Of a stretch of 64,000 nt of DNA, positions 5,674 through 49,629 are shown piece by piece; position 1 is the first letter of the stretch; every line of letters starts with the position of its first letter. This DNA is from an uncultured Pseudomonadales bacterium (GTDB taxonomy: Bacteria; Patescibacteriota; Microgenomatia; UBA1400; MFAQ01), in assembly GCA_964357975.1 (NCBI GenBank), contig CAYHNG010000001.1:47007-111006 (forward strand), written 5' to 3'. Under the pieces are notes generated by a model, which saw only the letters and a list, made by a program, of their open reading frames with translations, searched no databases and had not been told where the DNA came from. Position numbers and translations under genes: made by a program.

Positions 5674-7140
5674 TTACTTGATATCGAAACCCCACGAGTA
5701 AAGCTCCAATGGCCACTTGTCATTTGTGGATATTTCCATAGCTTCCACCCTCAGCTCAAGCTTCATGTTCTTTTTGACAAACTCTTTAATGTCTTCCGGC
5801 ATAAGTGACTGCCAATCGTTAACAATTACCAATCCTTTATGGTATTTTGCCTTTTCTATCTTAAAATCTTTGAGTGTTCTGTATTGCCACGATTTGACAA
5901 AATCTAAAAACCGCGGTTCCTTTGCGTCGATGGTAAAAATGGCCGCCGGGTTTTTGTCGGTATACCAGCTAAGTGTATCGAACGGACCGACAAAAACAGG
6001 CAATTTATCAAAATTGGGAAAGAGTTGGTATGTTTTCTGGAAAAAGGTTTTGTAATCTGCGTTTTGGACATCAGAGCTAAAGTCGGCATTTGGCGTGTAA
6101 TATGCCGCAGGCTTCCGGACGACCTTATATCCCCCTGCGTAAACCAACATGAAAACAGCCATACAAACAAAAAGTGAATTCTTGAAAAGAGACTCCCCGA
6201 CTTTTGCCCAGAAGACACCAAAAAACACAATAATCAATCCAAACAAGGGCATTAGATATCTAATATTGTGGCTATATTGAATGAAATTCCAGCTATATAG
6301 TAGTGCCAGTAACGTAGCTCCCACACCCAACTTTAGCCTTCTATCTTCGATGGTAAAAAACCCGACAAAGGCCGGCAAAGTGAATAAACCGTACTGTCTC
6401 CAAAAAAGATCTCGAAGAAAAGTTGTCCAATTGTGGTTAGGGTTAATAATAATTGGTAAAAATAGGTAAATTCTCTGCCACCAAAATAATACAAGAAAGA
6501 TGGGGACCAAAGCTATCAGGTATTTCCCAAGCTGTTTTGGATTCTTGAAAAGCAAAGGAATTGTGATACACAAATAAGGTATAAAACAGATAGATCCTAT
6601 CAGGTTATAAAGAGCGGCGATACAACTCAGTAGAATTATGCCTATGTGGAGCGAGATTTTTCTAATATCATTCTGCAAAAATGTTGAGAGATATAAGGTT
6701 ATTAAGAAAATGGTCTCAATTGCGGCATAGGGCTTGGCTTGGGTTGAATAGGCTAGATTAAGCTGAAAAAGTGTGAAGATTGTAGCGGAGAGAACACCTC
6801 CCCATTTATTGGAAAGTTTCCGGGTTAGTAAATAGACAAAAATTATCCCAAAAGTGCCCCACAAAACGCTAGGAAGACGAGCAGACCACTCTGAGAAACC
6901 AAGTATACGAAAGGCAATCGCTGTAGTGACGACCTGCAACCTTTGGTAACCGACGATCTCAATTTTAGACAGAAATGGAGTTTTCCCCAAGACCACGTCT
7001 CTTGAAAAGGAGCTAACGGCTGACTCGTCTGCCCAAAACGAGTGGTTGGTGCTTATGCCTTGGAGCCTAATACACAATCCAACGATAAATAACCCCGTAA
7101 CAAATACAATTTCCCAGATATTTCTTTTGAACCAGGTCAC
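5674..7140 (-). CDS. PMT/GT39-like GT-C membrane glycosyltransferase (polyprenol-P-sugar dependent)
   Basis: Polytopic. Loop-1 motif FWADESAVSSFSRDVVLGK...GFSEWSARLPSVLWG parallels the DE-motif paralogs at 40377-51312. GTG start at 7140. Has a roughly 120-aa C-terminal soluble domain. Confidence 0.7.
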   Translation of the reverse strand: MTWFKRNIWEIVFVTGLFIVGLCIRLQGISTNHSFWADESAVSSFSRDVVLGKTPFLSKIEIVGYQRLQVVTTAIAFRILGFSEWSARLPSVLWGTFGIIFVYLLTRKLSNKWGGVLSATIFTLFQLNLAYSTQAKPYAAIETIFLITLYLSTFLQNDIRKISLHIGIILLSCIAALYNLIGSICFIPYLCITIPLLFKNPKQLGKYLIALVPIFLVLFWWQRIYLFLPIIINPNHNWTTFLRDLFWRQYGLFTLPAFVGFFTIEDRRLKLGVGATLLALLYSWNFIQYSHNIRYLMPLFGLIIVFFGVFWAKVGESLFKNSLFVCMAVFMLVYAGGYKVVRKPAAYYTPNADFSSDVQNADYKTFFQKTYQLFPNFDKLPVFVGPFDTLSWYTDKNPAAIFTIDAKEPRFLDFVKSWQYRTLKDFKIEKAKYHKGLVIVNDWQSLMPEDIKEFVKKNMKLELRVEAMEISTNDKWPLELYSWGFDIK

Positions 7141-7148
7141 AACATATT

Positions 7149-9590
7149 CTAACTCACTCGACGGGAATGTATATCCTCTATGAAGAACAAGGTTACCAAA
7201 CTAACCACTGCCAATCCCGATATTGCTAATCCAAAATAAAACAACCGTTGAGGCCAAAATTCCACAATCAGATAGATATCAAATGAACCGTCCGGGTTTT
7301 TGTAACAAGAACTTGTTTCTTTGACACACACGCTGTAGGGATCCAGATTCCATCCGTTGGCATAATCGTTTGCCTTGAAGTAGTTCGATTCTGTAATTAT
7401 AGGATCGGATAACCAGGTATTCCAAAAACTCACTCCAGGTAAGTTGTCATTTTGGATGGTGCCATGAATTTTTTTAGAGAAAAAGTCAACCGTGTACGGC
7501 TGACTATCAGTTACCGAGTATTGATATCCAATCCATGCACCATATTTTTTGACTTTCTTTGCACCGTCACCGAGAGTGGAAACAGCATTTTGATCAATAT
7601 ACTGGACAATTTCTTCTTTATTGGCCTGATCCGGATTGTTTCTAAAGGATGTATAAATAAAATCGGAATTTATGTTCTTTTTTTGCTCTCCTGCCGGGTA
7701 TATTTTCCACCCCACATCCATTGACTCATTGAATACGAGTTTACTGGAGTCTGAGATATTTTTGAGATTTACCCTATAGGTTACGTTAGATATTTTCTTA
7801 TACTCGACAGAGGCGGAATTACCTGCGGTGACCAACTTGGGATTCTCAAGATAAAAATGCGGCAGAAAATATCTATCCGGAACTCGAAATAAGTCGAGAA
7901 GCTTTGATTGATATGCAGGCTCCAAAATGTTCCCCAAAACGTAGTTGTTCTTCCAGTATCCACCTGGGTCATCGTAACTGAATAGGTCGTTATGCCTTAA
8001 TATATACCTACTGTTTACGGAAGCGAATTTATCAAGTTTCGATTCAATATCTGTCTGAAATAAATTAAGAATGTTACAGTTAGTAGAAAATCCGGAACAG
8101 ATAGAGATAAAACTCTTACTTGATAATAAATTTAGCAGATCAACTCCTTCATGCTTTTTGTATCCAAAATCGAAAAAGCCGAATAACGCAAAGGGGTATT
8201 CATAGATGTTAGAATCATAAAGATTTTGATTAATTATTTTTGAAACATTCAAGTAGTCTTCCGGAATATATGGCAGGTTCCTATGATCCCAAAATCCGAC
8301 TTTATCTCGATAAAATACGCCGCCAGTAACGAGAGGATAACTAATTGCCAAAATTGAAATCAGACAGATGATAAATATTGATTTGAAGATGTTCTTACGA
8401 AACACCAACTCTTGTAAACTCATGCCGGCAAGTATCCCGATAGATAAAAAGATGGGGCCACCAAATTTGGTTGGGGGTGCTCTAAAGAGGTTAAACAAAG
8501 GAATCTTTGAATAGAATAATTTCCATATTTCCCCGGTGGGTCCTTGAATTCCATTGGCCAGAAGTAGGTGTAATACCAGTAGGACTAAGGAGAATAAGTA
8601 GATATGCCTAACGGTAGAGGATTTGTGTTTAACAATCAGAGAATAAAACGCGAGTATAGGGAAAACTAACAAAGAAACTTTGAAAAACACATTTTCTCTA
8701 TACAATGAAGAAAAATAGTACCAAGAATCGCCTGCCCACCCTGTTTCCCATAACCAATGGCTCGTTCCTGATAATAACCCCAGAATACCTCCTCTTTGCC
8801 CCGCCACATCGGGCCAATTAAACCCAAACGATCCGCTTTCGCTAATTAGTGACCCAGTAAACCCTGAAAGATAAAAATATCCTGTGGGAATAATCCAATA
8901 GAGATTGGTAAGAATTGAGACTATGGTTAAGATGGTAATCTTCTTTAATGAAGTCGCTTTATTTTCTGAAAGCCAATATTTTATCAATAGAAATAAGACT
9001 GAAGGGATCAATAGAGTTCCCAATGACATAGGGATGTTGCTGAGCCCCCCCCCAAAGACTAATGAGAGGGTGGCGACACCGATTAAAGACGAATTCCAGT
9101 ATTTGTGAGAATCCCAGTATCTTGAAAGCAAATACAGACATAATGGTAATGAAAGATAGATCGAAATAAGGAAAATGTGACCGTCATAAATCCTGCAGAC
9201 TACGAAAAGATTAAATACGTAATAGGCAGAAACCAGAAGGGAAACTGCATATTTTTTGAATAAATATTGAAAAAATAGCAAAGCAGAACCCAGACCAAAA
9301 CAAAATATCAACACGTAAGTGATAATTTCACCTAGAAAAACATTATTAAAAACAAATGATGCCTTTAATAAAAGTGCCATCGGTATGGCAGAGACAATCA
9401 AGGGGTTGAACTCACCAAGGTTTGAGTTTTTGGCCCATACATAAATGGTTTGATCTACACTTCCGGTCTGGAATATGGGAGCATAATCGTGGAAAATAAA
9501 GAGTCCATGTTTGAAAAAATTATAAAATATTATGCCTAACGACAAAAAAAGGGCTATTATGATAAATCTTTGAAGGGGTGTTGTTTTCAC
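7149..9590 (-). CDS. Large (813 aa) polytopic membrane protein with a roughly 400-aa C-terminal extracytoplasmic domain; possible GT-C-type glycosyltransferase
   Basis: About 12 N-terminal TM helices, then a long soluble domain. GTG start. I recognise no catalytic motif with certainty; the assignment rests on context. Confidence 0.45.
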   Translation of the reverse strand: MKTTPLQRFIIIALFLSLGIIFYNFFKHGLFIFHDYAPIFQTGSVDQTIYVWAKNSNLGEFNPLIVSAIPMALLLKASFVFNNVFLGEIITYVLIFCFGLGSALLFFQYLFKKYAVSLLVSAYYVFNLFVVCRIYDGHIFLISIYLSLPLCLYLLSRYWDSHKYWNSSLIGVATLSLVFGGGLSNIPMSLGTLLIPSVLFLLIKYWLSENKATSLKKITILTIVSILTNLYWIIPTGYFYLSGFTGSLISESGSFGFNWPDVAGQRGGILGLLSGTSHWLWETGWAGDSWYYFSSLYRENVFFKVSLLVFPILAFYSLIVKHKSSTVRHIYLFSLVLLVLHLLLANGIQGPTGEIWKLFYSKIPLFNLFRAPPTKFGGPIFLSIGILAGMSLQELVFRKNIFKSIFIICLISILAISYPLVTGGVFYRDKVGFWDHRNLPYIPEDYLNVSKIINQNLYDSNIYEYPFALFGFFDFGYKKHEGVDLLNLLSSKSFISICSGFSTNCNILNLFQTDIESKLDKFASVNSRYILRHNDLFSYDDPGGYWKNNYVLGNILEPAYQSKLLDLFRVPDRYFLPHFYLENPKLVTAGNSASVEYKKISNVTYRVNLKNISDSSKLVFNESMDVGWKIYPAGEQKKNINSDFIYTSFRNNPDQANKEEIVQYIDQNAVSTLGDGAKKVKKYGAWIGYQYSVTDSQPYTVDFFSKKIHGTIQNDNLPGVSFWNTWLSDPIITESNYFKANDYANGWNLDPYSVCVKETSSCYKNPDGSFDIYLIVEFWPQRLFYFGLAISGLAVVSLVTLFFIEDIHSRRVS

Positions 9591-9629: not shown

Positions 9630-10904
9630 TTATTCAGCTACAAATGAGGAGTCGAGCTTTGAGGTTGTGACAAATTGTTCCATGTCGTGAATAAATTTCC
9701 GGGTGACGATTTCCCTATTAAATGAGTTTACAACAAGTTCTCTACCCTTATTGGCGATCTTTTTTAGTAAGGTTTGGTGAGTCTGATAATATCTAATTTT
9801 TTGTTGGAGTCCGGCTAAAGTACCGTCGTAGGCAATATAGCTTACCCCATCCACAAGACCCAAATCCGTATACATATGGCTGTCAAGGCCAATATAGGCA
9901 CAGCCACAAGCCATGCCTTCAATAAAGTTGACCGATGGCAAACCAATATTTTCTTCAGGGCAAACAAACATTTTATATTTGTTGTACTTCTCCACGATGT
10001 CGAAGCTGTGATATTTCTTATGATCGGAATTGGTGAGCATTGTCCATATTTTATATCCCACCCAATCTGAGTAAAATCGCTTATTCGTAGAATGCCTTTC
10101 GTTTGTTTGAGGAGAGATATAACTATCAATGTATTTTTTAAGTGAGCCACTCTGATCGTAGATTGCTTTTCTCATTGGATGTAAAGCATTGGTTTTGAAA
10201 AAGTTTACATAATCGGAGTGAGCCTCGCTCACAAACTCTTTAGAATCCGAAAGAAGCAGAAGGGTACCTATGGCAAAGCACCTTGCAGTCCTCTTCTCAA
10301 AAGGTACTATGGACCGATACCTTTCTCGAAGAATAAAAGGCAAAACATACACTTTGTCGATAAAATTAAAATACTTCATAAAGTAGGGATTCTTCTTGAG
10401 ATTGGCCTCGCTCAACAGATATTTAATTCCCATACTTCTTACGTTTTTGGAAACCTGTGCCGTTCTGCCAAAATAATGTGTGGCGTTGAAAAGCTTCTTC
10501 CCCTTGAAAGTCTTTATTATTGATCTCTTTGCAACCTTATCGTTAAGAAATGTATCTGTGAAAGAACAAAAACCAAATAAGAGGTCGGTCTTCTCATCCA
10601 AGCCACCTCTATTAAAAATGATCTTTGCCTTAAGTGGGTTTATTCCATTTAAGAAACACCAGATATATATCTCAAAAAAAGATATTATTCTTAACAAGAA
10701 GTAGTTGTCCGAAACAAACTTGATCAGGGAGGATCCTGAGGTTAGTGAAGTTGCTGTACCATCGACAACAAACGCCATATCAGCCCGTTTTTCTTTAATT
10801 AGTTCCAGAAGAAAATCATTCTTTTGAGCATGAGGTTTGCGGAATAAAGACGAAAATAACGTTTTTCCAACTGTAGTATGGGGGTTATAAAAACACAATC
10901 TCAT
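9630..10904 (-). CDS. Glycosyltransferase, GT-B fold (GT4-like)
   Basis: C-terminal motif GLPSVNFIEGMACGCAYIG (E-x7-E-like GT4 signature). The track start at 10940 is a TTG; the ATG at 10904 (MRLCFYNP) is preferred. Confidence 0.6.
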   Translation of the reverse strand: MRLCFYNPHTTVGKTLFSSLFRKPHAQKNDFLLELIKEKRADMAFVVDGTATSLTSGSSLIKFVSDNYFLLRIISFFEIYIWCFLNGINPLKAKIIFNRGGLDEKTDLLFGFCSFTDTFLNDKVAKRSIIKTFKGKKLFNATHYFGRTAQVSKNVRSMGIKYLLSEANLKKNPYFMKYFNFIDKVYVLPFILRERYRSIVPFEKRTARCFAIGTLLLLSDSKEFVSEAHSDYVNFFKTNALHPMRKAIYDQSGSLKKYIDSYISPQTNERHSTNKRFYSDWVGYKIWTMLTNSDHKKYHSFDIVEKYNKYKMFVCPEENIGLPSVNFIEGMACGCAYIGLDSHMYTDLGLVDGVSYIAYDGTLAGLQQKIRYYQTHQTLLKKIANKGRELVVNSFNREIVTRKFIHDMEQFVTTSKLDSSFVAE

Positions 10905-10997
10905 TTTGATTTTATTTAGTATACTGCCGTTACTGAACAAAAGGCCATTCCAAAATCCCCATATTCGGATATAATTCGATTATATTTTATCCGACAT

Positions 10998-11540
10998 ATG
11001 AAAAAAAAAGAAGTATTTATCCCCAAAAGTTTAGTATTAGACGTAGACGGAGTCATGACGGACGGGCAGTTTCATTATACCGTCGAGGGAAAGGTGTCAA
11101 AAATATTTGGCCCTGAAGACAACGATGCGCTTTGTCTCTTGCAGGATAAGCTTAAGATATTTTTTGTGACTGGGGATAAGAGAGGATTCGAAATTACCAA
11201 AAGAAGGATTGTGGATGACATGCACTTCCCACTTGAGCTAGTAAGTACTTTTGAAAGAATCGAGTGGATAAAAAGCAAGCTGGACCCGGAAAACACTATT
11301 TATATGGGTGACGGAATTTTTGATGCGATAGTTTTTAACCAAATTGGATATGGTATTGCTCCGGCAAATGCTTTTTTTAAAACAAAGGAGTATGCCGATT
11401 TTATTACAAATGCCAGAGGAGGAGAAGGAGCCGTGGCAGAAGCGTGTCTTCATATCATGGATAAATTTTTTGAACCGTTTGACCCGCTAAATATACAGGT
11501 TAATAAAATTGGTGTTTGGAGTAAAAAAAATGATAAGTAA
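10998..11540 (+). CDS. KdsC-family HAD phosphatase (3-deoxy-sugar 8/9-phosphate phosphatase family)
   Basis: LVLDVDGVMTDG (HAD motif I), FVTGDKRG, GDGIFDAIVF, GGEGAVAEACLHI all follow the KdsC pattern. First gene of a translationally coupled plus-strand operon. Confidence 0.8.
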   Translation: MKKKEVFIPKSLVLDVDGVMTDGQFHYTVEGKVSKIFGPEDNDALCLLQDKLKIFFVTGDKRGFEITKRRIVDDMHFPLELVSTFERIEWIKSKLDPENTIYMGDGIFDAIVFNQIGYGIAPANAFFKTKEYADFITNARGGEGAVAEACLHIMDKFFEPFDPLNIQVNKIGVWSKKNDK

Positions 11541-12348
11541 GGACACAATATTGTGCATTTCAATTGCTGAACGACCCGGTAGTTTGGGTGCAACAATTTT
11601 CAATAACGCTTTCGAAAAGTTATCTTTGGATTATATCTATAAGCCTTTGCTGGTAAAAGCAAAGGACCTGGAAATTGCTGTTTTGGCAATTAGAGCCTTG
11701 TGCATCCGAGGTTGCGGCGTATCGATGCCTCACAAAATTGAGGTTATCCAATATCTAGATAAAGTCGATATGACAGCCAAAAAAATTGGGGCGGTTAATA
11801 CGATCGTTAATAATGACGGAACCTTGACCGGTTACAATACGGACTTTGAGGGTGCCAAAATAATAACGAAGAAAGATATTAACGTAAGAGGTTCAGATGT
11901 GTTTATTGCGGGCGCTGGGGGTGCCGCCAGAGCCATCATACAGGCTCTAATAGAAAACAAGGCCTCTAGGATATATATAACAAATAGAGACGAGCAAAAG
12001 GCGACAACGGTGGCTAAGGAATTCAAGATCGAGTTCATTCCATGGAAGGAGAAGGATATTATGTCAGGTAAGCTGCTGGTTAATGCCACGCCATTAGGGA
12101 TGAAGCTTGATGACCCGTGTATTTTTGCCGATGAAACGATTAATAACTTCGATGCCGTGATGGACGTGGTCGTAAGTTTAAATGATACCTATCTAATTAA
12201 AAGGGCCAAAGAATTTAACAAAATTACCTTACCGGGAATACGAATGTCATCTCTACAGGGAATGGTTCAATTTAAGTTGTATACTGGGGCAAATATTCCG
12301 ATAAAAATTATCGAAGAAGGAATACAAAAATTTTTAAATAAACACTAA
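11530..12348 (+). CDS. Shikimate/quinate 5-dehydrogenase (AroE)-family NAD(P)-dependent oxidoreductase
   Basis: SMPHKIEV, GAVNTIV, GYNTDFEG and the Rossmann motif AGAGGAARAI. Start moved to the ATG at 11530 (MISKDT) with GGAG 9 nt upstream; it overlaps the end of the preceding KdsC-like gene by 11 nt. Confidence 0.75.
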   Translation: MISKDTILCISIAERPGSLGATIFNNAFEKLSLDYIYKPLLVKAKDLEIAVLAIRALCIRGCGVSMPHKIEVIQYLDKVDMTAKKIGAVNTIVNNDGTLTGYNTDFEGAKIITKKDINVRGSDVFIAGAGGAARAIIQALIENKASRIYITNRDEQKATTVAKEFKIEFIPWKEKDIMSGKLLVNATPLGMKLDDPCIFADETINNFDAVMDVVVSLNDTYLIKRAKEFNKITLPGIRMSSLQGMVQFKLYTGANIPIKIIEEGIQKFLNKH

Positions 12349-12351
12349 ATT

Positions 12352-13935
12352 ATGGATTACAAAGTATGTATTTTGGCTGCTGGTTCCGGTACGCGAATGG
12401 GCAAATTATCCGATAGCATCAATAAGGCTATTCTACCAGTAAATTCTAAAGCCGTAATCTCTCATATTATCGAAAAATTCCCACCAAATATTGAAATAGT
12501 AATTGCAGTAGGACACAAAAAGGAAACGGTAATTGATTACGTTAAGCTTGCGTATCCCGAACGAAATTTTTCATTTGTCGAAATAGACAAATACATCGGT
12601 CCGGGCACCGGACCGGGCTATTCCCTTTTACAGTGCCGGAGCCAGTTAAAATGCCCTTTTGTTTTTTTTGCCGCCGATACAATTGTTCTTGAAGATGTGC
12701 CCGCTCCGGATCATAACTGGTTCGGGATTGCCCCAGTCAAAGAGACAGAGCCCTATTGTACGGTTCAAATAAAGAACAATTTGGTTTTTCAGCTTGATGA
12801 TAAAACAAAGAATGACAATAAATTTGCTTTTATTGGACTTGCCGGAGTTAGAGACTCTGAAATATTCTTTAAATCGCTGGAGAATAACAATACGAGTAAC
12901 AGTGGAGAAATTCAAGTCTCGAATGGATTTAATAGTTTGATTGAGCAAGAACTTGTGCCCATAGGATTTACATGGTTCGATACAGGGACTGAGGAAAATT
13001 ATGCTGAAACAAATAAGAATTTTTCCGGGGCTAGTAAATTTGATTTTGGAAAAGAAAGCGAGTTTATCTACTTTGTTAACGGGACGGTAGTCAAGTTTTT
13101 CGCAGATGAGAAAATTGCCAAAAACAGGTATGAACGAGCAACAAATAGCCTGTTGGGTTTGTGTCCCAAAATTGATGGTTACCGGGGGAATTTTTACTCT
13201 TACAAAAAACTGACCGGTCAAACACTTTACGATGTTTTAAATAATCACACAGTAAAGACTTTTTTAAATTGGGCCAAAGTTAATTTGTGGAAGAGAATCG
13301 AAATAACTCCCAGTGAAAAAAAGCAATTTAAAAAAGCATGTAAGGATTTTTACTATAAAAAAACAATGAAGCGTCTTAAGAAGTTTTTTGAAAAAACCGG
13401 GATTGAAGACGGTGAGACCGTCATAAATGGTATATCTGTTCCACCCCTAAAAGACCTTCTAGACAAGATAGACTGGAAGTATATTACAAATGGTGTTCCC
13501 TCTAATTTCCACGGAGATCTTCAATTTGATAATATCTTGGTTACCCGTGACCCGGTTAGTAATCTGGAAAAATTTATTTTATTGGACTGGAGACAAGACT
13601 TTGGTGGGTTGACCGGTATGGGTGATCTGTATTACGATCTTGCCAAACTTTATGGCGGGACAACACTCTCATATCAACTAATTAAACAGGGGATGTTTTC
13701 CTTTGACACCAGTGGATCAAGTGTATATTATAATTTTTATCTTAAAAACGATTTACTCGAGGCAAAGGAAGAGTTCGAGGACTTTATTATCAAAAACAAT
13801 TTCGATCTTAATAAAATAAAGATCATTACCGCACTAATCTTTCTAAACATGTCCCCCTTACATAACGACCCGTTCGATTTGATGTTATACCATTTAGGCA
13901 AGAGTCAGCTTTATCGATTGCTAAACAATAAATAA
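12352..13935 (+). CDS. Bifunctional sugar-phosphate nucleotidyltransferase (N-terminal) / APH-ChoK-type sugar kinase (C-terminal)
   Basis: N-terminus ILAAGSGTRMG is the NTP-transferase G-loop. C-terminus FHGDLQFDNILV...LLDW is the Brenner / aminoglycoside-choline kinase catalytic loop. 527 aa. Confidence 0.7.
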   Translation: MDYKVCILAAGSGTRMGKLSDSINKAILPVNSKAVISHIIEKFPPNIEIVIAVGHKKETVIDYVKLAYPERNFSFVEIDKYIGPGTGPGYSLLQCRSQLKCPFVFFAADTIVLEDVPAPDHNWFGIAPVKETEPYCTVQIKNNLVFQLDDKTKNDNKFAFIGLAGVRDSEIFFKSLENNNTSNSGEIQVSNGFNSLIEQELVPIGFTWFDTGTEENYAETNKNFSGASKFDFGKESEFIYFVNGTVVKFFADEKIAKNRYERATNSLLGLCPKIDGYRGNFYSYKKLTGQTLYDVLNNHTVKTFLNWAKVNLWKRIEITPSEKKQFKKACKDFYYKKTMKRLKKFFEKTGIEDGETVINGISVPPLKDLLDKIDWKYITNGVPSNFHGDLQFDNILVTRDPVSNLEKFILLDWRQDFGGLTGMGDLYYDLAKLYGGTTLSYQLIKQGMFSFDTSGSSVYYNFYLKNDLLEAKEEFEDFIIKNNFDLNKIKIITALIFLNMSPLHNDPFDLMLYHLGKSQLYRLLNNK

Positions 13936-13942
13936 AAACATT

Positions 13943-14947
13943 ATGGCTAATAGAATTAGTGCAAAACTAGGTATCGGACCAATGAGCAGTGAAGTAATAG
14001 AGGCCGTTTTCCGGTATTCCCACTTCTACCGGAAGCAAATCATGTTAATTGCTTCAAAAAATCAAATAGATTATGCCGGCGGATACGTTAATGGCTGGAC
14101 GACCGAACAATATGCTTTGTATGTCAAAGAAATGAGGAAAATATACGGAAATAGCGATGTAAAAATTTGTCGCGACCATTGTGGGCCAGGTTTTAATGGA
14201 ATTGATAATCTTAAAGATACTTATGAAACTATAAAACATGACATCGAAAACGACTTCGATTTAATCCACTTTGATTTTTGTCATCTTTCCGGTAACCGAG
14301 AGGAAAAGTTGACTGAAACCAAGAAGGCAATCCAATACGCTGTCAAACTAAACCCCAATATCTTGATAGAAGTGGGTACCGATGAAAACCTAGGCGTAAA
14401 CTATAGCCTGCCAAACAAATCGGAGATCGAAAAAGAAATTGATTATATACAAAGTTTCTGCAGCCCGGAGTTTTATGTTGTACAAACGGGTAGTTTGGTA
14501 AAAGAAATTAATCAGGTGGGAAATTTTAATCGAGATTTTGTTTCTCAGGTTGCTGAAATTGCAAAATCAAAAGGAATCAAAATTAAGGAACACAATGCCG
14601 ACTACCTCGACAAAGAGTCGATACAGTCGAGAAAAGACGTAGTTGGCGCCATGAATATTGCCCCACAGTTTGGCGTGGTACAAACCCAGCTGGTAGTTAC
14701 CAAATGTCTGCAGTTTGGAGTCAATTTCGAGAAGTTTTTTGGAGATATTTATGACAGTGGAAAGTGGAAGAAATGGTTGATGAATAACACAGCAGAGAAC
14801 AAGATGCTATGTGCCATTATCGGTGGTCATTATGGATTCAACTTTGAAAGTTACAAAGAGATCACCAAGAAATTAAGTGATAGTGTTGATATCAAGGAGT
14901 ATATAATCACTTCATTAATAGATATAATAGTTCACTATGATATATAA
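13943..14947 (+). CDS. GatZ/KbaZ-family TIM-barrel protein (class II tagatose-bisphosphate aldolase accessory / sugar-phosphate 4-epimerase family)
   Basis: GIGPMSSEVIEA...LIASKNQIDYAGGYVNGWTTEQYALYV...KICRDHCGPGF aligns by eye to the GatZ N-terminal pattern (G-x-SVCS...E-x-S-x-SQ-x-x-x-GGYTGMTP...GGDHLGP). Confidence 0.6.
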   Translation: MANRISAKLGIGPMSSEVIEAVFRYSHFYRKQIMLIASKNQIDYAGGYVNGWTTEQYALYVKEMRKIYGNSDVKICRDHCGPGFNGIDNLKDTYETIKHDIENDFDLIHFDFCHLSGNREEKLTETKKAIQYAVKLNPNILIEVGTDENLGVNYSLPNKSEIEKEIDYIQSFCSPEFYVVQTGSLVKEINQVGNFNRDFVSQVAEIAKSKGIKIKEHNADYLDKESIQSRKDVVGAMNIAPQFGVVQTQLVVTKCLQFGVNFEKFFGDIYDSGKWKKWLMNNTAENKMLCAIIGGHYGFNFESYKEITKKLSDSVDIKEYIITSLIDIIVHYDI

Positions 14948-15368
14948 CGCATCTCCGAAAGTGGTAACCAAGCCTTGGGGTAAAGAGCTGTGGCTCGAGC
15001 TTAATGACCGCTACTGTTACAAAAGGATCTATCTCAAAGCAGGGACAAGAACCAGTTTCCAGTATCATGAAAATAAAGTTGAGACTAATTACATTATTGA
15101 AGGAGAGGCGGAAGTATGGCTGGAAAATGAGAATGGAGGAATTGAGAAAATAATGATGAAAGCCAACGATATTTTTAATGTTCGCCCTCCACAAAAACAC
15201 AGAGTAATTGCAAAAACGGACTTGATACTACAAGAAGTATCGACCCCGGAAGTTGATGATGTAATTAGAATAGAAGATGATACCTCTAGAGCCAGCGGAA
15301 AAATTGAATCTGAACATAACAAAGCATCAGTTGACGGGAAAAAGCCAAAAAAAATAAGCTCTAATTAA
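14937..15368 (+). CDS. Cupin-domain protein, type-II phosphomannose-isomerase-like
   Basis: KPWGKELW...YCYKRIYLKAGTRTSFQYHENKVETNYIIEGEAEV matches the PMI-II C-terminal cupin pattern. Acidic, low-complexity C-terminal tail. Confidence 0.7.
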   Translation: MIYNASPKVVTKPWGKELWLELNDRYCYKRIYLKAGTRTSFQYHENKVETNYIIEGEAEVWLENENGGIEKIMMKANDIFNVRPPQKHRVIAKTDLILQEVSTPEVDDVIRIEDDTSRASGKIESEHNKASVDGKKPKKISSN

Positions 15369-16191: not shown

Positions 16192-17772
16192 TTATGCCGG
16201 GGCTTTCTTGTTACTAACAGGCGTATAGAGAATGGATTTGGTAGTATTCTTGAGAAAGCTTCTCATGAACAATTTAATCCCTGTATAAACTAACCTTACG
16301 GTATATCTAAGATCTTCGAAGCTATTAATTTTATTCAAAATTCTAGTTGGATTTAGATACGACATGGCTCTATAAGCAATGAAGCTCCGGTAAGCATATA
16401 GATGAAGTCTTTTGATCCTCTCTTTGTCGAAATTCATGGTCGGGGCTGCCTCTTCGTTGAGCATTTTAAACATCTCTTGATATTTCTTTTGATCAAATTT
16501 CATGGTTTTGAAAATATCATCAAAATTAAGCAGCCCTTCTTTCTTAAAGTCTTCATACACGGGTGATGTTGGCTGAGGGCTGAGAGTGAAAAAGGCAGCA
16601 AAGTCGGTTCCGGAATGTTTGGCGAATTTTATGGTGTCGAGCATCTGCTCTTTTGTTTCATAAGGGAAACCTAATATATGGGTACAGATGGTCCACATGC
16701 CAATTTTATTGGCATATTGAATCAACTCCTTCGCCTGAGATAGACTGTGTGTTTTATGAATATATTCTCGAATATCTTTATTCCCGGACTCGATGCCGAA
16801 GGTAATTCGGTAACAGCCGGCCTTTTTCATCTTTTTGATCAGCCGCTTATCAAGTGTCCAATGAGCAATACCGTTAGGAGTCGTCCACCTAATATCTAGT
16901 TTTCTTTTAATTATCTCGTCGCATATTTCACCCCATCTTTTTTTATTAACAGCGGCCGAGTCGTCCAAAAAGCCGATTTCATTTATTCCATAGGTATTGT
17001 GAAGCAGCTCAAGTTCGTCAACTGTTTTTACTGCGCTTTTGCCTCTCCAGGTCTTACCCCAGACAGCCCTCACGGTACAATAAACACAATCTCCGGGACA
17101 ACCGCGACTGGACATAATACCCAAAACGGGAGTCCTCATGGTATAAACACTACCCTTGGAAAGAGCGGCATATTTTTTGACATCGACCAACGAATAATCC
17201 AATGGAGGAAGTTTGTTCAGGTCCCAAATAAGCCGTCGCCTTTCATTTTCGATGATTTTCCTCCCCTTTTTGTACACAAGTCCTTTAACGTCAGAAACAT
17301 CTAGATTTTTCTCCAAAAGGTGATGACTCAATTCTAATAAAGTTTCTTCTCCTTCGCCAACTACAACATAATCAAACATTCCCATCCCCACAATCCATCT
17401 GGCAAATGAAGAGGCGTGATTTCCTCCAGTGACGATTTTTATCTTCGGATTTATCTTTTTGATGTAGGTCGCCAAGTTTACGATATCTTGAAAATGTCTG
17501 GAATACATACAAGACAATCCAATCAAGATAGGTTTCTTTTCAAGAATAATTTTTTTTATTTCGGCGTTTGATTTTCCGCATCTTTTCCGATTTCCGTCTT
17601 TGATCCAATCGTTAAAATCAAACATCCCCAGTTCTTCGATGCTACACGACACACCGTTGGCTTGGAGATAGGTACCAAGATTGAGTAAATTTAAGGGTAG
17701 ACTAGCCAGAATCAACTCCTGAGAGTCTTTATCAACTGTGTAGTATTGATTAAAAAGTAGAACGTCGGACAT
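16192..17772 (-). CDS. B12-binding-domain radical SAM enzyme (class B)
   Basis: N-terminal cobalamin-binding Rossmann region (KPILIGLSCMYSRHF...IVTGGNHAS), then the canonical CxxxCxxC motif SSRGCPGDCVYCT. Confidence 0.85.
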   Translation of the reverse strand: MSDVLLFNQYYTVDKDSQELILASLPLNLLNLGTYLQANGVSCSIEELGMFDFNDWIKDGNRKRCGKSNAEIKKIILEKKPILIGLSCMYSRHFQDIVNLATYIKKINPKIKIVTGGNHASSFARWIVGMGMFDYVVVGEGEETLLELSHHLLEKNLDVSDVKGLVYKKGRKIIENERRRLIWDLNKLPPLDYSLVDVKKYAALSKGSVYTMRTPVLGIMSSRGCPGDCVYCTVRAVWGKTWRGKSAVKTVDELELLHNTYGINEIGFLDDSAAVNKKRWGEICDEIIKRKLDIRWTTPNGIAHWTLDKRLIKKMKKAGCYRITFGIESGNKDIREYIHKTHSLSQAKELIQYANKIGMWTICTHILGFPYETKEQMLDTIKFAKHSGTDFAAFFTLSPQPTSPVYEDFKKEGLLNFDDIFKTMKFDQKKYQEMFKMLNEEAAPTMNFDKERIKRLHLYAYRSFIAYRAMSYLNPTRILNKINSFEDLRYTVRLVYTGIKLFMRSFLKNTTKSILYTPVSNKKAPA

Positions 17773-17834: not shown

Positions 17835-19670
17835 TCATCCATGTTTAGAGAGCCAATAATTGACAGCGAAGATTCTTAACAATTTGAACTGATTGTTACA
17901 AGTGTTATCCATGTGCTCCCGATATAGTTTATTAACGTATTTTTGGTTGAACATATCGTTTTTCTGGTGGAGATAATGAGAAAAAGTTTCTTTTAATTCT
18001 TTCTTTATCCATTTATCCAAAGGCACACCGAACCCTTTTTTCGGTCGGTAAATAAAATCTCTCGAATAGAAACGCTCCGCTAACTTTTTGGTCAGATATT
18101 TAGTTATTCCGCCTTTTATTTTCCAATTTCCTCCAAGACCAAAGACAAACTCTGCCAGTTTGGTATCCAAAAAAGGGTTTCTCATTTCCACGGAGGCGGC
18201 CATGCAAGTCCTGTCACCTTTTACCAGGTACCAATCCGGCAATTGAAGTCGGCAATCCAAATAGAGGGCTTTATTTAATAAATCGTCTTGTTTAAATTGA
18301 CTCTCTGCTAGGTGCGCATCAGAAAATATTTCCATCATCGACAATTCTTTACTTAACAACTGCTCGGCTTCCTCCCTCAAGAAACTTCCGCTTCCAAAAA
18401 GAAATTGTCTTTCGGAAAATTCATATTGATATCCTGCCAATAATTTTTTTATATTTGGACTGACCGATGTCTTGCTCAACAATGAGGCGAGAGGCTTAAG
18501 AAACTTGGTTTTTTCGATCAAGTACTGTGCTTTGTATTTTTCGTAACCTCCGAAAATTTCATCCCCCCCATCACCGCTCAAAACCACAGTCATGTCTTTC
18601 TTAGCCTGCTTAGCTACAAAGAATAATGGTACAACGGCGGCATCAGCCAGAGGTTCATCAAGATAATCCATGATTTCCAAGAAAGTTGACTGAACATCTT
18701 TTCCGCTGAATTCACACAAATGATAATCCAAGTCGTATTTGTTGACCACTTGCTTTACGTACTTTGATTCATCAGCGCTTGGGGTGTCTTTGTAACTTAC
18801 AGTGTAGGTACAGATGTTTGAGGTGTGTTTGGCCATATAGTGGGCGATCAGACTACTGTCGATACCACCACTCAAGAACAAACCCAAAGGGACATCGGAC
18901 ATTAACCTTTTCCTAACCGAGCTATCCAGTAGTCTATCAACCTTATCGATTATCTCAACTTCATTCAGATCATCTACGATCGCTATTTGACCTAGATCCC
19001 AATATCTTTTTTTATTAATAAGCTTCCAGTTATCGATATCGAATTGAAGTGTGGTGGCGGCTTCTAGCTTGTAGACATTCTTATAAATAGTTTCCGGAGA
19101 AGGAATGTAGCCATAGAACACGAATTTTTCAATCGCAGAATAATTTAAAATTAATTTTCTTTTTATATTTGGGTTTGAAACTATTGCTTTTAGCTCTGAT
19201 GCAAAACAAAAAGAATTCTCATCTAAATAATAGTAAATAGGTTTTTTTCCAAATCTGTCTCTCCCGAGTGTAATTATATTTTTGTATTGGTCATATATTC
19301 CAAAAGCAAACATCCCGTCCAAATGTTTGACAATGTTCTGTCCGTATTCTTCATAGCCATGAACTATTGATTCAGTATCCGAGACGCTATTCCAAACGTG
19401 TTTTCTTTTTAACCCTTTTTTTACTTTTTGGAAGTTGTAGATTTCGCCATTAAAAACGATTGCTATCGAGCCATCTTCATTAAACATGGGTTGCTTGCCG
19501 TTCTCAGAGAGGTCAACTATCGATAATCTTGTTTGGCCGAGAGCGACGTTACCTGCCAGATACTTGCCTTGCTGGTCCGGTCCACGTCGAGATAATGTCG
19601 AAACCATTGTCTCGAAGAGACCTTTTTCAACTTTTTTTTGTTTTTGGATGAGGCCTACTATTCCACACAT
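17835..19670 (-). CDS. asnB: Asparagine synthetase B-type glutamine amidotransferase
   Basis: MCGIVGL N-terminal nucleophile, GEIYNF, the PP-loop SGGIDSS, and a full-length (611 aa) AsnB architecture. Confidence 0.9.
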   Translation of the reverse strand: MCGIVGLIQKQKKVEKGLFETMVSTLSRRGPDQQGKYLAGNVALGQTRLSIVDLSENGKQPMFNEDGSIAIVFNGEIYNFQKVKKGLKRKHVWNSVSDTESIVHGYEEYGQNIVKHLDGMFAFGIYDQYKNIITLGRDRFGKKPIYYYLDENSFCFASELKAIVSNPNIKRKLILNYSAIEKFVFYGYIPSPETIYKNVYKLEAATTLQFDIDNWKLINKKRYWDLGQIAIVDDLNEVEIIDKVDRLLDSSVRKRLMSDVPLGLFLSGGIDSSLIAHYMAKHTSNICTYTVSYKDTPSADESKYVKQVVNKYDLDYHLCEFSGKDVQSTFLEIMDYLDEPLADAAVVPLFFVAKQAKKDMTVVLSGDGGDEIFGGYEKYKAQYLIEKTKFLKPLASLLSKTSVSPNIKKLLAGYQYEFSERQFLFGSGSFLREEAEQLLSKELSMMEIFSDAHLAESQFKQDDLLNKALYLDCRLQLPDWYLVKGDRTCMAASVEMRNPFLDTKLAEFVFGLGGNWKIKGGITKYLTKKLAERFYSRDFIYRPKKGFGVPLDKWIKKELKETFSHYLHQKNDMFNQKYVNKLYREHMDNTCNNQFKLLRIFAVNYWLSKHG

Positions 19671-23374: not shown

Positions 23375-24310
23375 TTAGTTCTTGAGGTTGTGAAGAAACC
23401 AGTCGTATTCTATACCGATTCCCTTTTCTAGTTCCATTTGAGGTTTCCAACCAAGCGAGAGAAGTTTAGAAACATCTAACAATTTTTTGGGGGTACCGTC
23501 CGGTTTGGTTGAGTCCCAAACTATTTTCCCTTTGAAACCGACGATTTTTTTGATAATTTGGGCAAGCTCTTTAATTTTGAGATCCACTCCAGTGCCAATG
23601 TTGATGATTTCTGAGTTATCATAATGCTCCATAAGATAGACACAAGCGTCTGCCATATCATCGACGTAAAGAAATTCTCGATAGACGTTTCCCGTTCCCC
23701 ACAATACAACCTCTTTTTTATGCCCAATTTTGGCATCATGGAATTTACGGATTAAGGCAGGAAGGACGTGAGAACTATTTAAGTCAAAGTTGTCATGTGG
23801 TCCGTAAAGATTCGTAGGCATGACAGAAATGAAATTAGTTCCATATTGCTCGTTGTAGCTTTGGCACATCTTGATACCGGCAATCTTGGAAATAGCATAA
23901 GCGTCATTAGTCTCTTCTAATGGCCCGGTAAGAAGATAAGATTCTTTGATTGGCTGTTTGGCTAGCTTAGGATAAATGCAAGAGCTCCCCAGAAACATTA
24001 GTTTCTTCACTTTATTCTTCCATGAAGCATGGATAACATTGTTTTGGATCTGAAGATTATCATAGATAAAATCAGCTTTCCTTGTTTTGTTGGCCATAAT
24101 TCCACCAACTAAAGCCGCAGCCAAAAAAACATATTCCGGTTTTTCTTTTTCAAAAAAATTTTCGACTTGTACCGAACTTTCTAAATCCAGTTCAGATCTT
24201 TTCCTAGTGATGATATTGGTATAACCATTTTTTATCAAAGACCGAACGATAGCGGTCCCAACTAAACCACTTTGACCTCCGGCAACAAAAATCTTGGCGT
24301 CTTTCTTCAT
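23375..24310 (-). CDS. fcl: GDP-L-fucose synthase (GDP-4-keto-6-deoxymannose 3,5-epimerase/4-reductase)
   Basis: [28 protein letters not shown], and an overall SDR-extended layout typical of Fcl/WcaG. Start taken at the ATG at 24310 ([14 protein letters not shown] overlap) rather than the track start at 24322. Confidence 0.9.
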
Positions 24311-25335
24311 TATTGTTTCCATTTTTCACGGCTGGATTCCGCTGGAGCAATCTTACCTCTAATCCAACCATAAATATATATAAATAGGGTAGCATAGCAG
24401 GCAATGGGGTGGAAGAGCCATGCCGAATCTGGTTTTCTGATATATCCTATGACCGTCTGGTAAAGTATGGGGAAAATTAGAATACATGAAAAGACGAACT
24501 TGAGGATACCCGTCATAAATGATCCTTCCCAATCCACATCTCTATTCTTCTTGGCTTTGTGAAAGGACATATCGTTAATGCGGCGGAACTGTTTACGGAA
24601 GAACTTGGCGGCGTCGTTTTCGACGAAAGTGTGAATAATGCCGGTATCTACTTTGGCAACTTTGATTTCACCTTCTGAGCGGATTAGTTTAAGAAGAATA
24701 TCGATGTCAAATAAATAATCTGACTGTTTGGTGGCTTTTTGGAGATATTCTTTTCGAAAAATGGTGCCATTAGCACCGATGGTGGGTATGGGCTGGTGAT
24801 TGAGGGTTATTTCCAGATAGCCATTTTTCTGTACTTCAGGAAATTTGAGATCTGTCCAACGATTTGTAATATACGAAAAACGATCGTAGTTACCAATGAA
24901 GAGACAAATGGGATCGTTCATACCCAATAAGGCGAAATAGCGCGTAAGTAATGGATCTTGCCGGCGGTAGGTATAGCGAATTGGTTCGGAAACAATAATG
25001 CTCTTGTTGGTAAAAGGTTTCACCATATCGGAGAGCCAATGACTATTGGGGAGAATGTTGTCTGAATCGATAAGAGCAATAAGGTCACCTTTAGCAGCTT
25101 TCACAGCTACGGCTTTGCCGGACTCGCCGGTTCTTAATTTGTTTGGGATAACGGTCGCTCCGTACTTTTTAGCTAAACTAACAGTATTGTCCGTCGACCC
25201 TCCGTCCCCAATTAGAATTTCAATTTTTGTTTTCGGATATTTTTGAATAGAGATGGACTTTAGGCATTTTTCCAGGACTAAACCTGAGTTCAAGGTGGGG
25301 ATGACAATGGAGATGGAGGGATGTGATGGTTTCAA
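24310..25335 (-). CDS. Glycosyltransferase family 2
   Basis: [11 protein letters not shown]...GDGGSTD...IDSDN, with a C-terminal TM anchor. TTG start at 25335. Confidence 0.85.
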
Positions 25336-28462: not shown

Positions 28463-29104
28463 TTACACCGGTTCAGCGAGATTTTCGCGTTTTAGCTTCA
28501 CCCAACTGGTTTTATATACCTTGACTTTCTTGGAAATAATACGAAAGAAGTTAGACCTTTTTGTAATTCTCGCTAAATAGCTTCCTGAGACCATGTCAGC
28601 ACAATTTACCGCCCTTTCTCTCTGGCTGTCAACGTGTCTTATCTTTGCGATTCTCGGATATTTACGGAAGATGTATTCATTAAACTCGTTTTGAGATCTC
28701 TCATTGTGGAAATGTCGGTCAAATGTAATCTCCATTTCGGACTTGTTGAATGATTTCATTACTTTGTTGATTAGTTTACTAGCCGCCATCGAATAGTTTA
28801 GAGGGCTATCCTGAACTTTCTTGTTACTCTTGTTTATTTCCAAGACGTAAACTTTAATCTCAAGATTACTAAGCTCCGTCAAATATTTGGTTTTGATATT
28901 ATCACTAGCTTTGTAATACTTTATTTCAGACATTATTTTATGTTTTCTACTTGATGACTTTCTAAGTTTGTTGGCTATTCCCACGAGGTCTCCTTGCTCT
29001 CTTGTTGCTACAGCACCGAGTATAAAATATTTATCTCTAGTGTCCGGTAATGTCCCCGACTCATCAATAAAGATATATATTTTCTTCTTGTGAGCAGGTG
29101 TCAT
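28463..29104 (-). CDS. DUF3800-family protein
   Basis: N-terminal IYIFIDESG motif characteristic of DUF3800. ATGA overlap with the upstream GT2 gene. Confidence 0.5.
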   Translation of the reverse strand: MTPAHKKKIYIFIDESGTLPDTRDKYFILGAVATREQGDLVGIANKLRKSSSRKHKIMSEIKYYKASDNIKTKYLTELSNLEIKVYVLEINKSNKKVQDSPLNYSMAASKLINKVMKSFNKSEMEITFDRHFHNERSQNEFNEYIFRKYPRIAKIRHVDSQRERAVNCADMVSGSYLARITKRSNFFRIISKKVKVYKTSWVKLKRENLAEPV

Positions 29105-49605: not shown

Positions 49606-49629
49606 GATAGTCAATTAGAATTATATGCG

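Follow-up and report, generated by a model that had tools for sequence, protein, structure and literature searches.

A five-gene cassette around a fused nucleotidyltransferase-kinase that may make a nucleotide-activated rare sugar for surface glycans in uncultivated bacteria and archaea

We analysed a stretch of 64,000 nucleotides from contig CAYHNG010000001.1 of an uncultured bacterium (hereafter the window), which holds a compact run of plus-strand genes at exactly positions 10998-15368, with minus-strand genes of a large glycan locus on either side. A preliminary description of this DNA had placed a translationally coupled plus-strand operon of six genes here. While the operon itself is confirmed at these positions, the run consists of five open reading frames (ORFs), and six activities are obtained only if the fused nucleotidyltransferase (NTase) and kinase of the third gene are counted twice. 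The genes, named g1 to g5, are as follows.

10998-11540, plus strand, g1 (180 aa): phosphatase of the haloacid dehalogenase (HAD) superfamily, C0 type, KdsC/YrbI subfamily
11530-12348, plus strand, g2 (272 aa): NAD(P) oxidoreductase of the shikimate dehydrogenase (SDH) family, SdhL (HI0607) type
12352-13935, plus strand, g3 (527 aa): fused NTase and kinase
12352-13047, plus strand, N-terminal domain of g3 (residues 1-232): sugar-phosphate/alcohol-phosphate NTase
13048-13935, plus strand, C-terminal domain of g3 (residues 233-527): small-molecule kinase of the APH/choline kinase (ChoK) fold
13943-14947, plus strand, g4 (334 aa): GatZ/KbaZ-like TIM barrel of the class II aldolase superfamily
14937-15368, plus strand, g5 (143 aa): cupin of the phosphomannose isomerase (PMI) type, corresponding to the C-terminal part of type II PMI

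Both 11-nt overlaps that had been described, between g1 and g2 and between g4 and g5, can be read from the sequence; the additional 4-nt overlap is absent, and g2/g3 and g3/g4 are instead separated by gaps of 3 nt and 7 nt, respectively. The ATG start of g2 at position 11530 is backed by an end-to-end alignment with HI0607. The two overlaps (11530-11540 and 14937-14947) share the form ATGATAnnTAA (ATGATAAGTAA and ATGATATATAA), which may be a recurrent translational-coupling signal. We regard the five ORFs as real genes because the closest related locus, L044, encodes all five proteins at 77-89% identity.

The g1 protein scores 67.5 bits with the KdsC subfamily model TIGR01670 (cut-off 107), 60 bits with the KdsC model NF007019 (cut-off 208), and 51 bits with KDN-9-phosphate phosphatase. 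Its motif I (DVDGVMTDG, residues 15-23) and motif III (GDGIFD, residues 104-109) follow the C0 HAD pattern (DxDGVxTDG and GDxxxD), and the DVDGV and GDG elements are at least 95% conserved among 59 orthologues. The KdsC-like assignment made earlier therefore holds in its motifs, though at a score under the subfamily cut-off. No KdsA, KdsB, or KdsD was found in the cassette or among the scanned ORFs of the window. The next protein, g2, combines an SDH substrate domain (PF08501, 68 bits) with a Rossmann domain (PF01488, 34 bits), and lies under every aroE cut-off, with 216 bits for NF009202 (cut-off 306) and 179 bits for TIGR00507 (cut-off 200). In the PDB, it matches HI0607 (1npy; 7.5e-40 over residues 1-262), 2hk7 (∼1e-40), and the SDH-family 5-ketofructose reductase 7cok (6.6e-26), and its Lys/Asp catalytic dyad (K67/D105) is conserved among 49 orthologues. 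The former call of an AroE-like NAD(P) dehydrogenase has thus survived both profile and fold searches, and shikimate-pathway genes were absent from the window.

The NTase domain of g3 matches PF12804 (40 bits), and its best sequence match in the PDB is LicC (5.7e-8). It also aligns over its full length with sugar-1-phosphate enzymes, namely positions 2-224 of TIGR03992 and residues 4-220 of RmlA (3hl3). By sequence alone, the kinase domain has no PDB match and only 14.7 bits to the Pfam APH model; however, it carries the features of the APH/ChoK fold, i.e., the Brenner motif HxDxxxxN (as HGDLQFDN) and the Mg-binding Asp (D412), which are invariant in the orthologue alignment together with K248. 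LicA and MurU are among the fold matches of g3, which scores ∼23 bits with MurU models whose cut-offs are 250-370. Profile, fold, and kinase motifs agree in this way with the fused NTase and APH/ChoK-type kinase of the preliminary description, and all g3 members found have the two domains joined in one protein.

For g4, we searched an AlphaFold2 model (pLDDT 88) with Foldseek. The best fold match is GatZ (2fiq; E 1.1e-13, TM-score 0.79), followed by 3txv (E 4.9e-13) and then by class II fructose-bisphosphate aldolases (FBAs), YdjI, and SqiA, with true aldolases reaching TM-scores of 0.5-0.6. The profile matches are low, with 22.2 bits for PF08013 (gathering score 26.7) over residues 16-127 only and 21 bits for TIGR02810 (cut-off 569), while an orthologue from a second sequence clade (clade B, locus L073) scores 42 bits with PF08013, above the gathering score. 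When orthologues of clades A, B, and C were aligned with Escherichia coli GatZ and GatY, g4 residues D78, H79, E143, and H217 coincided with GatZ D87, H88, E171, and H257, and all four are invariant across the three clades. In GatZ, Asp87 has been proposed as the catalytic base, and His88, Glu171, and His257 as Zn ligands; the demonstrated activity is epimerisation of ketose 6-phosphates (PMC11907403). Because this Asp/His/Glu/His site is invariant, g4 is, judged from its residues, a competent metal-dependent enzyme of the aldolase/epimerase type, and the GatZ/KbaZ-like assignment is supported by the fold match as well as by the retained catalytic Asp and metal triad.

The g5 cupin matches profile positions 11-116 of the 116 in PF01050 (38 bits; gathering score 23.6) and positions 357-466 of TIGR01479 (38 bits; cut-off 373). 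Its KPWG element is at least 95% conserved among 62 orthologues, as are Q42, H44, E49, and H88, which we take to be the equivalents of the Gln/His/Glu/His metal ligands of PMI. With a PF01050 score above the gathering score, the PMI-II-type cupin identified earlier is sustained, and g5 is predicted to be a PMI-type cupin isomerase. The catalytic residues of g1, g2, g3, and g5 are likewise kept (among 49-82 orthologues), and the active-site motifs of all six catalytic domains are intact.

The gene set is widespread. In a collection of 5.8 billion proteins, g3 has 2930 relatives, with 62-89% identity across bacteria of the candidate phyla radiation (CPR; Falkow-, Yanofsky-, Peri-, and Komeilibacteria) and DPANN archaea (Pace-, Woese-, and Nanoarchaeota and Diapherotrites). 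An exhaustive HMMER search yielded 822 representatives of the g3 family (clusters at 50% identity, E ≤ 1e-30), and g4 shows the same distribution as g3. Further carriers include Omnitrophota, Planctomycetota, Elusimicrobia, Verrucomicrobia, Bdellovibrionota, SAR86, single cells of Pelagibacteraceae, and one metagenome-assembled genome each of Legionella and Thaumarchaeota; the taxon labels of some metagenome-assembled genomes are possibly unreliable. When one genome per species was scanned, 80 loci were obtained, and genes were counted by tblastn over 83 loci. All five genes occur together in 40 of the 83 genome loci, and g3, g4, and g5 in 73, which bears out across phyla the co-occurrence that had been set as a check on the operon. 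The genes follow three orders in three sequence clades: SDH/HAD-NTase-kinase-TIM-cupin in clade A; HAD-TIM-(275-aa protein)-cupin-NTase-kinase-SDH in clade B; and a third clade on virus-labelled contigs. The flanks of the related loci are consistently glycan-synthesis genes, and no transporter or phosphotransferase system (PTS) component is conserved with the gene set. We found no characterised member, no curated family, and no literature description of this set.

The reductase step is filled in two ways. In 22 loci, all of them without SDH, a classical short-chain dehydrogenase/reductase (SDR) of 243 aa (PF13561, 205 bits) is encoded between the TIM barrel and the cupin. No locus has both enzymes; 22 have only the SDR, 48 only the SDH, and 13 neither, some of the last being short or truncated contigs (Fisher p = 2e-11). 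Since the SDR displaces the SDH in this manner and the two never occur together, the oxidoreductase is an integral step of the cassette, filled by either of two unrelated enzymes, and g2 is no stray AroE. The preliminary description had considered an AroE-family enzyme odd in such an operon, a view that these loci contradict.

Relatives of the NTase-kinase (33-42% identity) also occur on 157 virus-labelled contigs in IMG/VR. In the 80 of these loci in which genes were counted, the NTase-kinase is present in 80, SDH and the TIM barrel in 78 each, and the cupin in 76. These loci (L084-L163) constitute the third cassette clade, which mostly has the cupin, NTase, and kinase in a triple fusion and a short SDH (∼206 aa), and usually lacks the HAD gene. 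The GenBank phage collection contains a single match, Marine virus AG-345-E15 (L165, MH319741.1), in which the cassette is flanked by a phage-type primase, both ribonucleotide reductase subunits, and ∼25 kb of glycan genes. Across the genome loci, the virus-labelled loci, and other homologues, cassette domains are fused in several combinations.

Cupin-NTase-kinase, cupin N-terminal: 54 of the 80 IMG/VR loci; L063 and L066; P0376, P0452, and others
NTase-kinase-TIM barrel: L046, L048, and P0362
HAD-NTase, the NTase being a paralogue: L036 and L051
NTase-kinase-GT2 (glycosyltransferase family 2): P0389
Cupin-GT2, deduced from coinciding coordinates: L038 and L049

These fusions place the cupin, NTase, kinase, TIM barrel, and HAD phosphatase in one pathway. 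The GT2 family of the fusions also adjoins the cassette in 11 loci. Judged from these sequences, the fusions point to a GT-A-type glycosyltransferase as the user of the product, and argue for a glycosyl donor, i.e., a nucleoside diphosphate (NDP)-sugar, over a phospho-alcohol donor.

Two sets of additional genes accompany the cassette in some clades. In 13 clade-B loci (L050, L052, L058, L061, L064, L065, L067-L070, L073, L075, and L076), a conserved protein of 275 aa, usually encoded between the TIM barrel and the cupin, has no match in Pfam, NCBIfam, or the PDB, and probably has an additional role in the pathway or is a transferase dedicated to it. In DPANN and some CPR genomes (L001, L011, L013, L014, L020, L021, L023, L036, L051, L056, and L077), an accessory set lies beside the cassette, comprising (i) a stand-alone NTase paralogue ∼55% identical to the N-terminal domain of g3 (18 loci), (ii) a protein of the inositol-monophosphatase family (13 loci), and (iii) a DUF218 protein, a P-loop kinase-like protein, and a 350-aa protein without a family; this set may represent a second pathway branch. 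The N-terminal sequence of another relative, P0479, looks like a GIY-YIG endonuclease domain.

We compared the cassette with the known systems closest to it. In the GDP-D-glycero-α-D-manno-heptose pathway (GmhA, HddA, GmhB, and HddC), an isomerase, an anomeric kinase, a HAD phosphatase acting on a bisphosphate, and an NTase likewise operate without a mutase; the isomerase gives a manno-type C2, as PMI does, and the product feeds surface glycans. However, orthology is lacking for every one of the four enzymes (18 bits with the HddC model, cut-off 300): the cassette has a cupin for the SIS-domain GmhA, an APH-fold kinase for the GHMP kinase HddA, and a KdsC-type HAD for GmhB; profile scans of the cassette proteins gave no SIS, GHMP, or GmhB match. 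The cassette further adds the GatZ-like TIM barrel and an obligatory reductase, and the bisphosphate order is one that we infer for it. Type II PMI/GDP-mannose pyrophosphorylase (GMP) proteins (AlgA, WbpW, and XanB; TIGR01479) also unite an NTase and a PMI-type cupin in one pathway, often in one chain; g5 spans the whole PF01050 domain with the Q/H/E/H metal site kept, and Fcl-like and GMD-like genes lie nearby. In contrast to these proteins, the fusions of the cassette have the cupin before the NTase, g5 stays far below the cut-off (38 versus 373 bits), a kinase domain accompanies the NTase in all cases, the TIM barrel and reductase are added, and a phosphomannomutase partner is missing. By analogy, the cassette would work like the GDP-heptose pathway and the type II PMI/GMP pair, with kinase and phosphatase standing in for the mutase, while being a member of neither.

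The remaining resemblances concern single components. E. coli GatZ (2fiq; PMC11907403) is the best fold match of g4 and shares its catalytic Asp and His/Glu/His ligands, but g4 is ∼90 residues shorter (334 versus 420 aa), lacks the C-terminal region of GatZ, and is only 17% identical. Moreover, GatZ and KbaZ serve galactitol and GalNAc catabolism with GatY/KbaY, whereas g4 stands in an anabolic context with the NTase-kinase. In LicCA (CDP-choline) and AmgK/MurU (MurNAc salvage), an APH/ChoK-fold kinase and a small NTase activate a compound with a free hydroxyl for a surface polymer, and g3 shares the NTase-then-kinase order of the LicCA fusion; their substrates are imported, however, whereas the cassette would devote three or four upstream enzymes to de novo synthesis of its own, and no LicB or LicD occurs among the scanned conserved neighbours. 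SdhL (HI0607), of which we know no established physiological substrate, aligns with g2 from end to end with the Lys/Asp dyad kept, and the 5-ketofructose reductase illustrates that the SDH family can reduce a keto-sugar. In contrast to both, g2, which scores under the NF009202 cut-off, is a fixed partner of an NTase-kinase, a partnership that we did not find described. None of the five proteins reaches an NCBIfam equivalog cut-off, with all matches to models of KdsC, AroE, GalU, RmlA, GlmU, MurU, HddC, GatZ/KbaZ, and GMP-PMI scoring well short of it, consistent with the earlier statement that no textbook pathway matches; with the clade-B orthologues included, the same holds for the Kdo/CMP-Kdo, GDP-heptose, LicCA, AmgK/MurU, GlmU, and GMP-PMI systems. 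The components do not map cleanly onto Kdo/CMP-Kdo or GDP-heptose synthesis; a clean mapping of this kind had been named beforehand as counting against a non-standard sugar.

With somewhat more confidence than doubt, we read the five genes as one cassette that makes a nucleotide-activated rare sugar from a central sugar phosphate for a surface-glycan locus, with kinase and phosphatase replacing a phosphomutase. Cross-phylum co-occurrence and domain fusions support the earlier idea of a single unit that makes and activates a non-standard sugar. From the observed domain identities, intact active sites, co-inheritance, reductase displacement, and fusions, we infer an order of steps, a substrate, and a product. 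In this order, g4, as a Zn-dependent class II aldolase-type enzyme, would break and re-form the C3-C4 bond of a ketose 6-phosphate by retro-aldol/aldol chemistry (e.g., converting fructose 6-phosphate to tagatose 6-phosphate, the pair on which GatZ acts in this way), and g5 would convert the ketose phosphate to an aldose phosphate, of talo/manno configuration if the stereochemistry of PMI is kept. The kinase domain of g3 would then transfer a phosphate onto the anomeric hydroxyl, the KdsC-like g1 would remove the terminal phosphate, and the NTase domain of g3 would form an NDP-sugar for use by a GT2 enzyme. The g2 protein, or the SDR in other genomes, would use NAD(P)H to reduce a keto group of an intermediate, either free or phosphorylated, in a step that is obligatory. 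As the displacing SDR is of the classical 243-aa type and not of the extended NDP-sugar type, it agrees with reduction at the level of a small sugar or its phosphate.

Several points favour this route, namely (i) that GatZ is the nearest structure to g4, (ii) that PF01050 cupins act on phosphosugars, (iii) that KdsC-type HADs take terminal phosphates, and (iv) that the HAD-NTase fusions would join consecutive steps. The last fit the bisphosphate route because the product of the phosphatase would be the substrate of the NTase; they agree slightly better with kinase-then-phosphatase than with the order of phosphatase, anomeric kinase, and NTase proposed in the preliminary description. A ketose-derived or epimerised nucleotide sugar, as suggested earlier, is a plausible guess for the product. 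With more doubt than belief, we also entertain the stronger proposal of a previously unrecognised de novo route (by aldol assembly or C4 epimerisation) to an NDP-sugar absent from known glycans, mutase-free and spread horizontally through CPR bacteria, DPANN archaea, other uncultivated lineages, and marine phages.

Other observations weigh against the favoured route. The HAD gene is found in only 8 of the 80 IMG/VR loci and hence missing from 72, and the route assigns the reductase no defined step. The known APH-fold anomeric kinases (NahK, AmgK, MtnK, and maltokinase) act on non-phosphorylated sugars, which favours a phosphatase acting before the kinase. No cultured organism is among the carriers found in our sequence searches. 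Finally, while the catalytic residues of GatZ are kept in g4, the residues that set GatZ apart from class II aldolases, Glu44, Lys279, and Cys20 (PMC11907403), are replaced by A37, N238, and a Ser, respectively. The Ala and Asn at GatZ positions 44 and 279 are the residues of the aldolase GatY, and because g4 is GatY-like at two of the three discriminating positions, it may be an aldolase rather than an epimerase.

In an aldolase reading, which we rate as unlikely, g4 would join dihydroxyacetone (or its phosphate) to an aldehyde (e.g., methylglyoxal, lactaldehyde, or glyceraldehyde) in an aldol condensation that gives a ketose 1-phosphate or a keto-ketose; g2 or the SDR would reduce the extra keto group, g1 would remove the C1 phosphate that blocks isomerisation, g5 would convert the free ketose to an aldose, and g3 would first place a phosphate on the anomeric position with its kinase domain and then activate the sugar with its NTase domain. 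The outcome would be a 6-deoxy or otherwise unusual hexose made de novo, akin to fucose/rhamnose catabolism run in reverse. Such a scheme gives all six activities a necessary role, explains the need for both a phosphatase and a kinase, and accommodates the free-sugar preference of the APH-fold kinases, the GatY-like residues next to a full Asp/His/Glu/His site, the match of g2 to the 5-ketofructose reductase, and the next-best fold matches of g4, which are dihydroxyacetone phosphate-dependent class II aldolases (FBA, YdjI, and SqiA). Nevertheless, g4 is structurally closest to GatZ, an epimerase of ketose 6-phosphates (PMC11907403), at a TM-score of 0.79 versus 0.5-0.6 for true aldolases. Further, cupins of the PF01050 type isomerise phosphosugars, the phosphates that KdsC-type HADs are known to remove are terminal ones and not those of ketose 1-phosphates, the HAD-NTase fusions would link non-consecutive steps, and the cassette encodes no source of the aldehyde.

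The LicC match, on the other hand, raises the question of an activated polyol or alcohol phosphate, as in LicCA or Gtp1-3 (CDP-2-glycerol). Here, a ketose phosphate would be epimerised and reduced to an alditol phosphate, dephosphorylated by g1, re-phosphorylated elsewhere by the ChoK-like kinase, and converted by a cytidylyltransferase to a CDP-alditol, so that the glycan would be decorated with a phospho-alditol. The phosphatase-kinase pair would then serve to relocate a phosphate, the obligatory reductase would have its place (classical SDRs include polyol-phosphate dehydrogenases), and the NTase-then-kinase order would be that of Treponema LicCA. We consider this distinctly improbable, as it leaves the PMI-type cupin idle although no other domain is joined to the NTase-kinase as often, and as the fused or adjacent transferases are GT2 (GT-A) domains; the full-length alignment of the NTase with sugar-1-phosphate enzymes also speaks against it, and no LicD, TagF, or CDP-alcohol phosphotransferase was seen in the scanned co-occurring neighbour families, several of which have no Pfam match at all. 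Least probable, and in our view barely credible, is a catabolic or salvage operon (tagatose/galactitol-type use or scavenging of host sugars) that lies in a glycan locus by chance, with g2 as a housekeeping AroE. GatZ homologues and polyol dehydrogenases do occur together in E. coli galactitol/tagatose catabolism (gatD-gatZ-gatY), CPR and DPANN organisms rely on scavenging, and the clade-B SDH reaches the cut-off of the TIGR00507 aroE domain model (211 versus 200), whereas g2 of the window does not reach that of any aroE model. The NTase-kinase fusion in every member and the further GT2 fusions are, however, an anabolic signature; transport genes are not conserved with the set, and glycan-synthesis flanks are. 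An SDH that is swapped for an SDR within the cassette and kept on virus-labelled contigs is unexpected of a housekeeping AroE, a role that we reject for g2 in view of the displacement and co-occurrence data.

Three other schemes were set aside. Neither a cyclitol/carbasugar route, in which the TIM barrel would be an intramolecular aldolase working with the SDH and an inositol monophosphatase, nor an ulosonic-acid route found support. For the cupin and reductase as an RmlC/RmlD-like pair acting on an NDP-4-keto sugar, there is no conserved dehydratase, and the displacing SDR is classical rather than extended.

Much of microbial diversity belongs to CPR bacteria and DPANN archaea, which live attached to hosts and whose surface chemistry is almost unknown. 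If the de novo-pathway reading is true, the cassette would define a common and still unseen surface-sugar chemistry. The presence of the cassette on virus-labelled contigs speaks for strong selection on a surface sugar, which possibly serves as a receptor or in phage evasion. With enzymes that are small, soluble, and have clear boundaries, the pathway could be reconstituted in vitro straight from metagenomic sequence. Functions would thereby be assigned to the SdhL-type 'shikimate dehydrogenase' and to the short GatZ-like TIM barrel, and rare NDP-sugars might become accessible to enzymatic synthesis without a mutase.

The locus around the cassette encodes GT2, GT4, and GT-C enzymes, methyltransferases, and a Wzx-like flippase. 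The immediate neighbours beyond g5 are genes for a methyltransferase, a B12-radical-SAM enzyme, and an AsnB-type amidotransferase, followed by a GT2 gene. The glycosyltransferases described as downstream of the operon are thus present in that a GT2 gene lies past these three, but the genes are read from the opposite strand, toward the operon. On the g1 side, two features adjoin the cassette.

9630-10940, minus strand: GT-B-like protein of 436 aa (PF13524, 27 bits), divergent from g1
10941-10997: AT-rich divergent intergenic region of 57 nt between this minus-strand gene and g1, presumed to be a shared promoter region

The family of this GT-B-like protein, for which no PDB or NCBIfam match was found, adjoins the cassette in 9 of the 83 loci, including L044; with this moderate association, it is a candidate partner or user of the cassette. 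A TATAAT lies ∼25 nt 5' of the g1 ATG within the divergent region, in which the promoter scan flagged no full sigma-70 match; the promoter role of the region is a presumption on our part, and the promoter and terminator scans gave nothing exceeding shuffle expectation. The G+C content is 37-38% in the part of the window with the cassette versus 42-46% further on, and no tRNA was found in the window. Between the GT-B-like gene and a PMT_2-like gene, an ORF of 813 aa (7149-9590) has no Pfam or NCBIfam match, and an ORF of 766 aa occupies the equivalent position in L044.

Approximately seven paralogous membrane proteins of 550-575 aa are encoded in tandem at 40377-51312 and 53327-54877 (also 5674-7140), and the members that were scanned match PMT_2 (GT-C, ArnT-like glycosyltransferases). 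Close to this array are genes resembling GT87 (52016-53266) and YfhO (57731-59986). Because GT-C enzymes take polyprenyl-phosphate-sugar donors, the PMT_2-like proteins could be the final users of sugars from the locus. A GDP-L-fucose synthase (Fcl)-like gene at 23375-24322 scores 484 bits, just under its cut-off of 500; GDP-mannose 4,6-dehydratase (GMD) was not found among the scanned ORFs of the window, and 11 of the genome loci and 15 of the IMG/VR loci have GMD-like genes close to the cassette. These Fcl-like and GMD-like neighbours hint at a GDP-linked cassette product, without proving it.

The glycan locus also contains two B12-binding radical SAM enzymes (16192-17772 and 25404-27035), whose best matches, all below threshold, are to P- and C-methyltransferases and HpnJ. 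The family occurs within 6 kb of the cassette in 12 of the 83 related loci, which suggests radical methylation or rearrangement of a sugar. The AsnB-type glutamine amidotransferase (17835-19670) best matches the model of the XrtA/PEP-CTERM exopolysaccharide amidotransferase, and a MetK S-adenosylmethionine synthetase is encoded at 34139-35242; as the locus holds at least six methyltransferase genes, these two genes would suit a glycan with heavy amidation and methylation. Among the GT2 genes, a DUF3800 protein (28463-29104) looks out of place in a biosynthetic cluster.

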